Source: Escherichia phage vB_EcoM_Lh1B. From it: a stretch of 64,000 bases of DNA. The notes under the pieces were generated by a model. The model did no database searches. It was not told where the DNA came from and was given only the letters and a program-made list of their open reading frames with translations. The position numbers and the translations under genes are program-made. Of this stretch, positions 59,537-61,595 are shown piece by piece. Positions within the stretch are counted from its first letter, which is position 1, and each line of letters begins with the position of its first letter. The stretch lies in the sequence record OK428535.1, one strand, 5' to 3'.

Positions 59537-60670
59537 ATGTCGACGCTCGATTTAGATTTAGAAGTCCTGACTGACGACTACGATCGCCTGGTCGCACTCG
59601 AAGGTCTGGGAGTTAAGCCCGACTTCCCTGCGGTTTGCGCGATCCGTCAGCGTTGGTGCTTAACCGACGACGGTGAAGATATGTTGGTTGCTCGTGAATC
59701 GCGCGAAGCGANGGAGCGTGCTCAGTTTATGACTGATACTGACCCGCGGGCTGGCATCCATCGCGCAGCAGGGCGCATTACTGCGAAAGCTGTTAAAGGT
59801 ACTGGAAAGTTAGTGGGTGCTGGACTAGGTGCAACCGCAAAGGGCGCGGGTAAACTTTCGAAAAAGCTCGCATTACGCTTTTACGATTTCGCGGAAGCGC
59901 TAGCGAAAGAACAAGCCGACCGTTTGAAAGAAATAACTTCGAAAGCTGCTTTCATGGAACGTAAGCTCAATAAGCTTAAAACGCGAATGTCGCTGCTAGA
60001 TGACCACAAAACACTCGCTGCGGTCGACGTTCACACGAGTAGCTGGACGTCTAAAATTTGCTTTGAAGATCGACCCGATTTTGAAGCGTGTGTTAAGTTT
60101 TCTAAACAAACAAACGCGTACGAAGGCGTCGTGCAAAAGTACACGGTTTACACACGCACCGCTCTGAAGAAAAGCAAAGCATTCGAAGGGCCGGGCTTAA
60201 AACAAATCAGCAAGTCCACGAACTGGGCAGTTAAGCGTGCTGCTGGGTTGCTTGGCATCATCGATCCCTTTAAAAAGGTGGAAGCTTTTCCTGTCCCTGG
60301 AAATATCGTTGTGGTTGAGCACCATAGTGGTAAAGTCAGTTGGGCAATTGCGCGTGACGGTGAGTATGGTGAAACCATTAAATCGCTGGATATGCATCAG
60401 TGTGGGAAAGCATTAGAGGCTGTGGAAGCACTTATCAAATCTATTGCTGCACGTGGAACAAAGAACCGTGTTGTGGGCTACACCGGCATTTACGAAGAAG
60501 TGGAAGCGATGAAGTCCGAGCTTAAGAACCTAGAAGGGGATGAGCTGAAGGAGGCCACGTTACGTTACCGTAATGCAATGGCGATGGAAGACGCTTTCAC
60601 CACGGCATTGGTACGTGTGGCGGAGGGTCTAATGGAATGGACGAAGCAATCGCTGGCCGAGGTGAACTGA
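59537..60670 (+). CDS. hypothetical protein, 377 aa
   Basis: ORF with AGGAGCAGGGG RBS. Confidence 0.65.
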   Translation: MSTLDLDLEVLTDDYDRLVALEGLGVKPDFPAVCAIRQRWCLTDDGEDMLVARESREAXERAQFMTDTDPRAGIHRAAGRITAKAVKGTGKLVGAGLGATAKGAGKLSKKLALRFYDFAEALAKEQADRLKEITSKAAFMERKLNKLKTRMSLLDDHKTLAAVDVHTSSWTSKICFEDRPDFEACVKFSKQTNAYEGVVQKYTVYTRTALKKSKAFEGPGLKQISKSTNWAVKRAAGLLGIIDPFKKVEAFPVPGNIVVVEHHSGKVSWAIARDGEYGETIKSLDMHQCGKALEAVEALIKSIAARGTKNRVVGYTGIYEEVEAMKSELKNLEGDELKEATLRYRNAMAMEDAFTTALVRVAEGLMEWTKQSLAEVN

Positions 60671-61131
60671 TGAAGATTATTACCATAGTGGGGCCAGACA
60701 CGGCTAACGGCAGGAAATATTCCACAGATATCCTCGCGCTTTATAACGAGCTGGACAAAAGCGAAATAGAAAGCTATCGAAAAGAGACGGGTATTAATGT
60801 CCGTTTTACGCCGGCTAAATCGTTAGCCGAGCGCTTCCGGGGTCGTTTACTGGCGGTCGTGGACGACGGTGTCTTGTATGGCTTTGCGCAATACCGCACG
60901 ATGACTGAAGAGGGTGTGACGATGATGTCGGTATCCTCACTGGTCGTTAGCAGCAGCGCACGTGGTAAAGGTTACGGCACCGCGTTGATGGATGCGGTAA
61001 AGAAATCCGCAACGGAAAAAGGGTGTACAGTTGTTCACCTGTCCGTGAACGCCGGTAACGCTGCCGCGAAGTCGCTCTACGACAAAGCTGGCTTTAAGGT
61101 AGGTGCTTACCAGATGTATTGGAGGGTGTGA
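60670..61131 (+). CDS. GNAT-family N-acetyltransferase (paralog 1)
   Basis: Motif A VSSSARGKGYGTALMDAV; motif B NAGNAAAKSLYDKAGFK; ATG overlaps upstream stop (TGATG). Confidence 0.8.
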   Translation: MKIITIVGPDTANGRKYSTDILALYNELDKSEIESYRKETGINVRFTPAKSLAERFRGRLLAVVDDGVLYGFAQYRTMTEEGVTMMSVSSLVVSSSARGKGYGTALMDAVKKSATEKGCTVVHLSVNAGNAAAKSLYDKAGFKVGAYQMYWRV

Positions 61132-61595
61132 TGAAAATTGTTTTTGTCACCAAGCCCAACTCTCCGTATGGAAAGAAATACTACGCGGACTTGTTAGGAC
61201 TACACAACAAGTTATACGACGATCAGAAAATAAAACTTGCCGACTTAAACGGTCGTGAAGGGTTTAATCAAATCTCAAAACTGGAGGAGGTTTGGGGTGA
61301 AGGTACGCTGTGCGCTTGCGCCGTTGATGACCGTGGTGTGGCTGTTGGTTTCATCACCTTTGGCTACACCAAAAAGGGACAACGTTTCCTCTGGGTATAT
61401 AACTTTTTTGTAGATGAATCGGTTCGTTCACAAGGCGTTGGCCATGAACTGATCGAAGCCGTAGAGAACTATGGCAAATCAAAAGGCTGCGCATGGATGC
61501 AGCTTAACGTGCTCGGTAATAACGACCGTGCTATTGCGTTTTATGAACGTTTCGGATTCCGAACTGAATACCAGGATATGGTAAAGGAGCTTTAA
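61131..61595 (+). CDS. GNAT-family N-acetyltransferase (paralog 2)
   Basis: Motif A VDESVRSQGVGHELIEAV; motif B GNNDRAIAFYERFGFR; ATG overlaps upstream stop; track start 61119 is TTG. Confidence 0.8.
   Translation: MKIVFVTKPNSPYGKKYYADLLGLHNKLYDDQKIKLADLNGREGFNQISKLEEVWGEGTLCACAVDDRGVAVGFITFGYTKKGQRFLWVYNFFVDESVRSQGVGHELIEAVENYGKSKGCAWMQLNVLGNNDRAIAFYERFGFRTEYQDMVKEL

Follow-up and report, generated by a model that had tools for sequence, protein, structure and literature searches.

The window analyzed here, 64,000 nucleotides from Escherichia phage vB_EcoM_Lh1B (sequence record OK428535.1), contains two adjacent genes for GNAT acetyltransferases, termed GNAT1 and GNAT2, that follow directly on the gene for an internal head protein (IHP); a third GNAT gene, GNAT3, lies upstream (Table 1). 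A profile search of all open reading frames in the window returned no GNATs beyond these three. The DNA derives from an SPN3US-like jumbo phage (Seoulvirus) with a 240-kb genome. Over the 7 kb compared, it is 98.4% identical to Escherichia phage vB_EcoM_EC001 and 96.6% identical to SPN3US. A sequence-only reading of this DNA had thus been right to call it phage, but the “small phage region” that it described is instead part of a jumbo phage. Jumbo phages commonly carry GNAT genes, and all three genes already bear an acetyltransferase annotation in the EC001 record. The pair is real and its members are ancient paralogues, but it is largely ordinary and had been annotated before.

Table 1. Features at the tandem GNAT locus and its surroundings (positions in the window)
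Feature	Position	Strand	Evidence or remark
GNAT3, 160 aa, homologue of SPN3US gp88	56466..56948	+	Pfam PF00583, 26.2 bits; PHROG 7861, E=2.7e-78; PDB 7DQG, E=3e-108
IHP gene, homologue of SPN3US gp94	59537..60670	+	PHROG 2497 “internal head protein”, E=1.5e-87; weak Pfam phiKZ_IP match; 95.9% nucleotide identity to gp94
TGATG stop/start overlap, IHP/GNAT1; one end of a 461-nt presence/absence polymorphism	60668..60672	+	Sequence; SPN3US alignment
GNAT1, 153 aa, accessory paralogue	60670..61131	+	Pfam PF00583, 64 bits; PHROG 3810, E=6.9e-25; AF2 fold
CGTGGACGACGGT, copy 1 of an imperfect 13-nt direct repeat (11/13 identical)	60858..60870	+	Left end of the 186-nt in-frame deletion in L016
CGTGAACGCCGGT, copy 2 of the 13-nt direct repeat	61044..61056	+	Right end of the 186-nt deletion in L016
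TGATG stop/start overlap, GNAT1/GNAT2; other end of the 461-nt polymorphism	61129..61133	+	Sequence; SPN3US alignment
GNAT2, 154 aa, core gene	61131..61595	+	Pfam PF00583, 65 bits; PHROG 3810, E=2.3e-59; synteny

GNAT1 extends from an ATG at 60670 to a TGA at 61129-61131, and GNAT2 from an ATG at 61131 to a TAA at 61593-61595. Both TGATG junctions are one-base stop/start overlaps, and Shine-Dalgarno-like motifs precede both genes (GAGGTG at 60659-64 before GNAT1; GGAGGG at 61121-26 before GNAT2). These features fit the translational coupling claimed earlier, with coupling itself being a prediction from the arrangement. A sigma-70 promoter scan was uninformative, as it gave fewer matches than expected from shuffled sequence; SPN3US-like phages use their own RNA polymerases. 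In every lineage examined, the IHP gene is linked by overlapping codons to the GNAT gene(s), and the block from the DprA-like gene to gp98 is collinear across these phages. Peptides of gp94 are present in SPN3US mass spectrometry (PMC10052503).

All three proteins match the Pfam Acetyltransf_1 family (PF00583) above its gathering threshold of 20.7 bits, GNAT3 weakly so. The two adjacent reading frames are therefore GNATs, as had been proposed, and their paralogy is borne out by 34% identity over 149 residues (BLASTP E=1e-20), far above chance. The common N-terminal organization noticed in the sequence recurs as a pattern (M1, K2, G14, Y17, L22, L24, N26, L28) that is invariant in eight family members. 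Motif A (Q/R-x-x-G-x-G/A) reads RGKGYG in GNAT1, RSQGVG in GNAT2 and RRGGVG in GNAT3. In GNAT1 it comprises R98-G-K-G101-Y-G103, and the motif B tyrosine is Y137; 22 family members all share R98, G101, N130, A133, Y137 and G141. With motif A and the motif B tyrosine present in both members of the pair, their acetyl-CoA sites are intact, and both proteins are predicted to be catalytically active. An AF2 model of GNAT1 built from a 74-sequence alignment has the GNAT fold with a pLDDT of 96 and a pTM of 0.89 (single-sequence AlphaFold gave a pLDDT of 43.5). Foldseek matched this model to 445 PDB chains at E<=0.001; the top matches listed are GNAT acetyltransferases, with a probability of 1.0 for AAC(3)-I, SSAT and DpA polyamine acetyltransferases. 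Homology to virion proteins, including the structural decoration proteins that the sequence-only reading had raised as an alternative identity, was not found in PHROG or Pfam, where the GNATs match only acetyltransferase families. Further, gp95 and gp88, the SPN3US counterparts of GNAT2 and GNAT3, are absent from mentions of virion proteins in the SPN3US virion and head-proteome papers searched.

GNAT3 is identical in 158 of 160 residues, over its full length, to PDB entry 7DQG (“Putative acetyltransferase”), the solved structure of SPN3US gp88. It has no BLASTP similarity to GNAT1 or GNAT2, is unrelated to them beyond the superfamily, and belongs to another gene block, whose end is marked by a hairpin (57842-57865). 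This gene is kept across Seoulvirus, Erskinevirus, Machinavirus and the relatives of Cronobacter phage CR5, including Erwinia and Cronobacter jumbo phages. The third GNAT-like gene reported from sequence alone thus exists, but it is a separate conserved gene and not a useful paralogue of the pair. A literature search found no paper on the function of gp88 or 7DQG.

The protein encoded by GNAT2 is identical to SPN3US gp95 (SPN3US_0095, YP_009153389); the genes differ at 17 synonymous and 0 nonsynonymous positions. GNAT2 is 72% identical to YP_007237670 of Erwinia phage phiEaH2 and 53% identical to YP_009292176 of Erwinia phage vB_EamM_Caitlin, whose genes fill the same slot directly after the IHP gene. 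In a neighbor-joining tree with unresolved deep nodes, GNAT2 and these two proteins form one clade (bootstrap 77-86%). Judged from sequence and gene order, GNAT2 is their syntenic orthologue. Both were found to be functional spermidine N-acetyltransferases by Li et al. (2023, PNAS; PMC9992855), who assayed N-acetylspermidine formation on expression in E. coli lacking speG. In the same assay, YP_009153389 of SPN3US gave no N-acetylspermidine peak above background (PMC9992855), and this negative result is the sole experimental datum on the GNAT2 protein itself. With this outcome for a protein identical to GNAT2, spermidine activity appears to have been lost or altered in the Seoulvirus branch. 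Acceptor-site motifs of the clade point to a candidate cause: the Seoulvirus proteins have VLGNN and VYNFF, whereas the active enzymes have VLDNN and V/IHNF. In human SSAT2, the residues opposite the Seoulvirus glycine and tyrosine are the D of VLDWN and the E of YLEDIYV. Judged from this alignment, the substitution of Gly/Tyr for Asp/His may account for the negative assay.

GNAT1 is absent from 19 of the 22 well-covered GenBank relatives, including SPN3US, where the IHP gene passes straight into GNAT2 via the same TGATGAA junction. Identical copies occur in EC001, JN03 and phage 1252, and in two metagenome contigs (both 100% identical) that were the only ones returned by a metagenome scan. 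Only three proteins fell below E=1e-30 in a search of 1.84 billion cluster representatives, and a scan of IMG/VR gave no relatives. Both E. coli and Salmonella served as isolation hosts for the phages that carry the gene, and no correlation with host range was seen. In lineages at 85%, 76% and 49% identity, the order is always IHP-GNAT1-GNAT2, and the divergence levels of GNAT1 parallel those of GNAT2. With homologues at 76% and 49% identity in the same slot of distant lineages, the duplication is ancient, contrary to the idea of a recent burst. Recent foreign acquisition was also rejected, given a GC content of 51.3% (window mean 48.9%, sd 2.7) and a divergence that tracks GNAT2. The GNAT1 clade is separated from GNAT2 with 100% bootstrap in the neighbor-joining tree; GNAT1 is 30-32% identical to the active spermidine acetyltransferases, lies outside the phiEaH2/Caitlin clade and does not qualify as an orthologue of those enzymes. 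The parallel divergence and the tree, deep nodes of which are unresolved, favor repeated loss of GNAT1 over repeated lateral gain as the probable history.

Among genomes that are ~97% identical, the GNAT1 locus takes several forms: there are two mosaic alleles, a remnant with an internal deletion, and genomes that lack the gene. Alleles A and B are identical in codons 1-64, whereas codons 65-153 differ with pS 0.94 and pN 0.18. The remnant, in the relative L016, has an in-frame 186-nt deletion that takes out motif A and is bounded by 13-nt direct repeats. The recombination breakpoint between alleles A and B coincides with the first repeat copy, which falls inside an inverted repeat (60842-60867). 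Synonymous sites in GNAT1 are saturated, pN is only 0.16-0.18, and the catalytic motifs are invariant; the gene is under purifying selection where present. Given the saturated synonymous sites and a pN/pS of ~0.19, the divergent segment is therefore a recombinational mosaic, and positive selection behind the 83% allele was rejected.

The members of the pair differ in charge. GNAT1 has a pI of 9.4 (9.2-9.6 in its clade), and GNAT2 a pI of 6.7 (5.6-6.7 in its clade). The basic charge of GNAT1 suggests an acceptor different from that of the GNAT2 clade. Further, where the acceptor site of SSAT2 has acidic residues (E-D, and the D of VLDWN), GNAT1 has Ser-Ser and Ala, and GNAT2 has Tyr-Asn and Gly. 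Together with the 34% identity, these differences fit the diversification of substrates that had been suggested for the three genes, in so far as it concerns GNAT1 and GNAT2; GNAT3, which is not their paralogue, falls outside it. Comparison with NCBIfam equivalogs gave sub-threshold matches only. RimI (TIGR01575, cut-off 86.4 bits) scored 47.6 for GNAT1, 43.2 for GNAT2 and 23.3 for GNAT3; the spermidine acetyltransferase model PaiA (SpmdActasePaiA, cut-off 250) scored 23.6 for GNAT2 and did not match GNAT1; and the resistance models fell far below their cut-offs (AAC(3)-I ~30 vs 200, Sat2 28 vs 360, ArsN1a 36.6 vs 170). As no equivalog cut-off was approached, no acceptor class or subfamily name can be assigned. 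The PADLOC defence and toxin profiles matched none of the three proteins. The nearest neighbors in fold and sequence are at the level of generic GNATs (TM 0.56-0.79, 13-24% identity).

We consider it somewhat better than even, at a probability of roughly 55%, that this SPN3US-like pair stems from an ancient tandem duplication, with GNAT2 the core orthologue of the spermidine acetyltransferases and GNAT1 an optional paralogue with another acceptor. The analysis establishes what the genes are, their paralogy and orthology, their distribution, the selection on them and the fold; the catalytic activity of both enzymes and the nature of their acceptors we infer. The two proteins would represent one jumbo-phage family (PHROG 3810) that was duplicated just 3' of gp94. 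GNAT2 would most likely N-acetylate a small polyamine-type amine with acetyl-CoA in the infected cell, with the spermidine activity of the Seoulvirus branch probably lost or changed. GNAT1 would be maintained by purifying selection where it is kept and would be lost repeatedly by deletion. Because of its basic charge and its different acceptor-site residues, it may acetylate something other than a polycation. A bolder version, which we regard as rather improbable, is that GNAT1, as an accessory branch of the jumbo-phage spermidine acetyltransferase family with inverted charge, acetylates a target that is not a polycation, for instance an anionic metabolite, an aminoacyl-tRNA or a protein of host defence. 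If so, the strain-level presence and absence of GNAT1, the swapping of its alleles and its decay would be traces of a continuing arms race with certain hosts among Salmonella or E. coli.

The alternative to which we give most weight, although we still think it unlikely, is that one or both enzymes acetylate proteins: either host proteins such as RNA polymerase or ribosomal proteins, for takeover of the cell, or the adjoining head or ejection proteins. For each of the two, RimI, the acetyltransferase of ribosomal protein S18, ranks first or second among the NCBIfam models, and RimI and Ard1/Naa-type structures are among the PDB matches, but the RimI scores are far from the cut-off. The overlapping codons that tie the pair to the IHP gene in all lineages examined would suit a head-protein target. 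This adjacency is little informative, however, because the entire block from the DprA-like gene to gp98 is collinear in these phages, and neither gp95 nor gp88 is named among virion proteins in the SPN3US papers searched. An action like that of Rac has been proposed for jumbo-phage GNATs (PMC7824862), and acidic protein targets would suit the basic pI of GNAT1; on the other hand, acetylation of spermidine in vivo has been demonstrated for two orthologues of GNAT2 (PMC9992855).

Two further explanations concern GNAT1 only. It is quite unlikely, in our estimation, that the protein detoxifies a small molecule with antiphage or antibacterial action, for example streptothricin, an aminoglycoside or an amino-acid analogue of the glutamine-synthetase-inhibitor type. 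The best Foldseek matches are indeed AAC(3)-Ib and AAC(3)-Ia, and searches by sequence and profile matched, among others, the tabtoxin resistance protein, PA4866, phosphinothricin acetyltransferase, ArsN1, Sat2/3 and a GNAT from a V. cholerae integron cassette. Accessory, conflict-related genes typically vary in this way between ~97%-identical genomes, in presence and in mosaic alleles, and inactivation of a small molecule in some hosts or environments would explain the patchy strain-level distribution. Yet these similarities are at the superfamily level and dominated by the cofactor-binding core (30 vs 200 bits for AAC(3)-I, 37 vs 170 for ArsN1a), polycationic aminoglycosides are improbable ligands for a basic protein, and carriers from both E. 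coli and Salmonella show no visible host-range correlation. Least probable to us is that GNAT1 is just what remains of the duplication, redundant in function and without a role of its own, and is on its way to loss. Its absence from most relatives, the one relative with an internal deletion of motif A and the full viability of SPN3US without it would all be expected of such a gene. However, GNAT1 is intact in lineages as distant as 49% identity, and a redundant copy would not last to such divergence. The invariant catalytic motifs, the low pN (0.16-0.18) at saturated synonymous sites, and a charge and acceptor site that are systematically unlike those of GNAT2 also speak against redundancy.

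Spermidine acetyltransferases of phages were described recently, and why lytic phages inactivate a polyamine that they need is still unexplained. The locus supplies a natural comparison set: GNAT2/gp95, an orthologue seemingly without spermidine activity, and GNAT1, a paralogue that is divergent and optional. In GNAT2, Gly129 (Asp in the active enzymes) and Tyr91 (His in the active enzymes) provide an idea at the level of residues, and near-isogenic natural phages exist with and without GNAT1. Beyond this comparison set, the finding is routine.

Among known systems, the spermidine acetyltransferases of phiEaH2 and Caitlin share with GNAT2 its length (154-155 aa), its slot and a supported clade; they differ from it in their acceptor-site Asp/His and in their positive assay. 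Like them, GNAT1 has the cofactor motifs and the N-terminal module specific to the family, but it constitutes its own clade and is basic, whereas they are acidic. SPN3US gp95 is the same protein as GNAT2, encoded in a genome that lacks GNAT1. In EC001, GNAT1 and GNAT2 (ACEC001_0970/0980) are 100% identical at the nucleotide level and annotated as “acetyltransferase (GNAT) family protein”; the annotated GNAT1 differs in starting from an upstream in-frame ATG (495 nt) and not from the ATG of the TGATG junction. SSAT/SSAT2, AAC(3)-I and Acinetobacter DpA have the same small single-domain GNAT fold and rank highest among the Foldseek matches of the GNAT1 model (E ~1e-9, TM 0.6-0.7), and SSAT2 aligns with GNAT2 across motifs A and B. 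Identity to these enzymes is only 13-24%, however, and the acidic acceptor positions of SSAT2 are replaced in both phage proteins. Finally, Rac, the phiKMV/LUZ19 GNAT that acetylates the alpha subunit of host RNA polymerase, is likewise a small phage GNAT and has been put forward as a model for those of jumbo phages (PMC7824862, PMC13282480); its resemblance to GNAT1 and GNAT2 is a functional analogy taken from the literature, not a comparison of sequences.

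Megablast of positions 56000-63000 places this region among the SPN3US-like jumbo phages (genus Seoulvirus, ~240 kb), with 98.4% identity to Escherichia phage vB_EcoM_EC001 (EC001) and 96.6% to the Salmonella phage SPN3US. ORF and Pfam analyses confirm the sequence-only reading in its report of two adjacent GNAT acetyltransferase genes at 60670-61595 (GNAT1 and GNAT2) and a third (GNAT3) at 56466. GNAT1 and GNAT2 score 64-65 bits against Pfam Acetyltransf_1 (cut-off 20.7), and the shared ancestry claimed for them is borne out by 34% identity over 149 residues (E=1e-20). Their acetyl-CoA sites are intact, as had been stated, with RGKGYG (GNAT1) and RSQGVG (GNAT2) as motif A and the Asn and Tyr of motif B in both. 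The genes themselves were already known: all three are annotated as acetyltransferases in EC001, and one, GNAT2, has been assayed in the literature as SPN3US gp95. New here are the characterization of GNAT1 as a rare paralogue, mosaic and inverted in charge, the tie between GNAT2 and functional Erwinia-phage enzymes, and a hypothesis, at the level of residues, for why the SPN3US assay was negative.

Coordinates of the GNAT genes and neighboring features
Feature	Coordinates	Strand	Remarks
RuvC-like resolvase gene	54505-55155		PHROG 159
GNAT3	56466-56948		160 aa; SPN3US gp88
Strong terminator-like hairpin	57842-57865		between gp90 and gp91 homologues
Strong terminator-like hairpin	58547-58573
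DprA-like recombination-mediator gene	58624-59223		PHROG 768
Internal-head-protein (IHP) gene	59537-60670	+	SPN3US gp94, 'internal head protein', PHROG 2497, E=1.5e-87; stop overlaps GNAT1 start as TGATG
Alternative GNAT1 start	60637		in-frame ATG within IHP gene; 164 aa
Shine-Dalgarno-like GAGGTG	60659-64	+	precedes GNAT1 start
GNAT1	60670-61131	+	ATG 60670, TGA 61129-61131; 153 aa; ORF list and sequence
Inverted repeat	60842-60867		terminator-like hairpin inside GNAT1
Imperfect direct repeats	60858-60870, 61044-61056		ends of the deletion in L016
Shine-Dalgarno-like GGAGGG	61121-26	+	precedes GNAT2 start
GNAT2	61131-61595	+	ATG 61131, TAA 61593-61595; 154 aa; SPN3US gp95; ORF list and sequence
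gp96 homologue	61597-62205		PHROG 9255
gp97 homologue	62151-62522

The GNAT1/GNAT2 junction is a TGATG overlap identical to that between the IHP gene and GNAT1; together with the Shine-Dalgarno-like motifs, these overlaps are compatible with translational coupling of the pair. EC001 and the mechanical ORF list use the alternative GNAT1 start, but 60670 is favored as the true start by a Shine-Dalgarno-like motif, an MKI start and a TGATG junction that are all three conserved in all relatives. Because genes are tightly packed across 58624-63131, with no strong intergenic hairpin (other scan matches are weaker and inside ORFs), the pair is probably co-transcribed with the DprA-like gene, gp93 and gp94; GNAT3 probably belongs to the preceding unit, both assignments being drawn only from gene layout.

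Several neighboring features merit mention. The DprA-like gene is the first of the block that holds the pair, the RuvC-like gene lies ~4 kb upstream, and in several relatives neither is annotated as more than hypothetical. The hairpin at 57842-57865, a perfect 10-bp GC-rich stem with a GNRA-like TTCG loop, has a terminator score on both strands and is likely a bidirectional terminator or an RNA-stability element. Downstream of GNAT2, the two conserved gp96 and gp97 homologues, of unknown function, share 55 nt that are read in different frames; this overlap is kept in SPN3US, EC001 and more distant relatives. The window also holds 280 N bases, scattered one at a time and concentrated in certain genes (e.g., 6524-6858, 12000-14000, 54700-55360 and 59275-59407), with 55 in 6000-8000, 46 in 12000-14000 and none after 59712; their pattern resembles the masking of polymorphic positions in a mixed-population or consensus assembly. 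Matches to several GenBank SPFM phage records consist only of many short pieces.

GNAT3 had been counted as part of a local diversification, a view that does not hold. An independent core gene kept across Seoulvirus, Erskinevirus, Machinavirus and Cronobacter phage CR5 relatives, it passes the Pfam Acetyltransf_1 cut-off weakly (26.2 bits) and has no detectable pairwise similarity to GNAT1 or GNAT2. When every ORF of the window was searched with profiles, no further GNAT came up. Since 158 of its 160 residues are identical to the chain in PDB 7DQG, a 'Putative acetyltransferase', a crystal structure exists for SPN3US gp88; a literature search gave no paper on this protein.

GNAT1 is optional in Seoulvirus genomes. 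In SPN3US, the IHP gene joins GNAT2 directly via the same TGATGAA junction, the 461 nt of GNAT1 being absent. Coverage of the 7-kb query reaches 80% or more in 22 GenBank relatives; 19 of them miss the segment, and three (EC001, JN03 and phage 1252) have it. An identical copy occurs on two 242-kb metagenome contigs. The GNAT1 clade is also very narrow: when 1.84 billion cluster representatives were searched exhaustively with HMMER, only three proteins fell below E=1e-30, namely GNAT1's own cluster, one fragment and one 49%-identical protein. All GNAT1 relatives recovered sit between the IHP gene and the GNAT2 orthologue, be it the 85% allele of the Salmonella-assembly contigs L003-L005, the 76% homologue of L006 (a more distant phage) or the 49% homologue of L014 (a Caitlin-like contig). 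GNAT2 occurs without GNAT1 in loci L010-L013, phiEaH2 and Caitlin. A BubE-domain gene (PF20137), missing from the window and SPN3US, lies between the gp93-like and IHP genes of more distant relatives (L006 2535-2858, L012 1514-1858, L013 1495-1848, L014 1279-1632); phiEaH2 has two tandem IHP genes and no BubE-domain gene at that place.

In a neighbor-joining tree (200 bootstraps; deep branches unresolved), all GNAT1 sequences form one clade with 100% support, and all GNAT2 sequences form a second with the Erwinia phage enzymes (77-86%). GNAT1 divergence parallels that of GNAT2 in the same genomes: amino-acid identity to L006 is 76% for GNAT1 versus 73% for GNAT2, and to the L014/Caitlin lineage 46-49% versus ~53%, the last figure being that of Caitlin, whose copy is sister to that of L014. 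Most economically, the pair would go back to an ancient tandem duplication, after which GNAT1 was lost repeatedly; lateral re-insertion via the conserved flanks could also have produced the GNAT1 pattern, if less economically. The divergence of the pair fits the different substrates proposed for it. The duplication, however, appears ancient, and one copy is dispensable and often lost.

Within the species, the GNAT1 locus has four states: allele A (the window, EC001, JN03 and phage 1252), allele B (L003-L005), a remnant that has lost 186 nt in frame (L016), and complete absence. Codons 1-64 of allele B are almost identical to those of allele A (one synonymous difference), and codons 65-153 are saturated at synonymous sites (pS 0.94, pN 0.18). 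To judge from these sequences, allele B is a mosaic produced by recombination and constrained by purifying selection; fast adaptive change was rejected on the same values. The L016 deletion removes residues 64-125, motif A included. Its left end and the A/B breakpoint lie a few bases apart in the inverted repeat, and 60842-60870 may be a local hotspot for recombination or slippage. The base composition of GNAT1 is unremarkable.

Candidate phage spermidine N-acetyltransferases (SATs) were expressed by Li et al. (2023) in E. coli without speG; N-acetylspermidine was made by phiEaH2 YP_007237670 and Caitlin YP_009292176, and none by SPN3US YP_009153389 (PMC9992855). The two active genes lie directly 3' of the IHP gene in their phages, the same slot as GNAT2, and are thus its positional and phylogenetic orthologues. 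All 17 changes between GNAT2 and SPN3US gp95 are synonymous (0 nonsynonymous), so the negative assay applies to the exact GNAT2 protein. Expression failure would explain this negative simply. An equally simple hypothesis lies in the protein: where the active SATs and most of the remaining family read VLDNN and V/IHNF, the GNAT2 clade of Seoulvirus reads VLGNN and VYNFF, and these substitutions could underlie the lack of product. In the HMMER alignment to human SSAT2, the positions correspond to the D of VLDWN and the E of YLEDIYV; acidic residues there presumably line the polyamine site of SSAT enzymes.

The AlphaFold model of GNAT1, from a 74-sequence alignment, has a GNAT fold (pLDDT 96). 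Its nearest solved structures are AAC(3)-I, SSAT, the DpA polyamine acetyltransferase, BH1408 and a Vibrio integron-cassette GNAT, and profile searches also match tabtoxin-resistance and phosphinothricin-type enzymes; these similarities are at the superfamily level only. GNAT1 approached none of the curated NCBIfam cut-offs and matched no PADLOC profile. A basic pI of 9.2-9.6 is common to all four GNAT1 proteins, against acidic to neutral values (5.6-6.7) in the GNAT2/SAT clade, and GNAT1 has Ser-Ser and Ala at the two acceptor positions aligned with SSAT2. From these differences, we infer that GNAT1 is not a polycation binder and would use a different acceptor.
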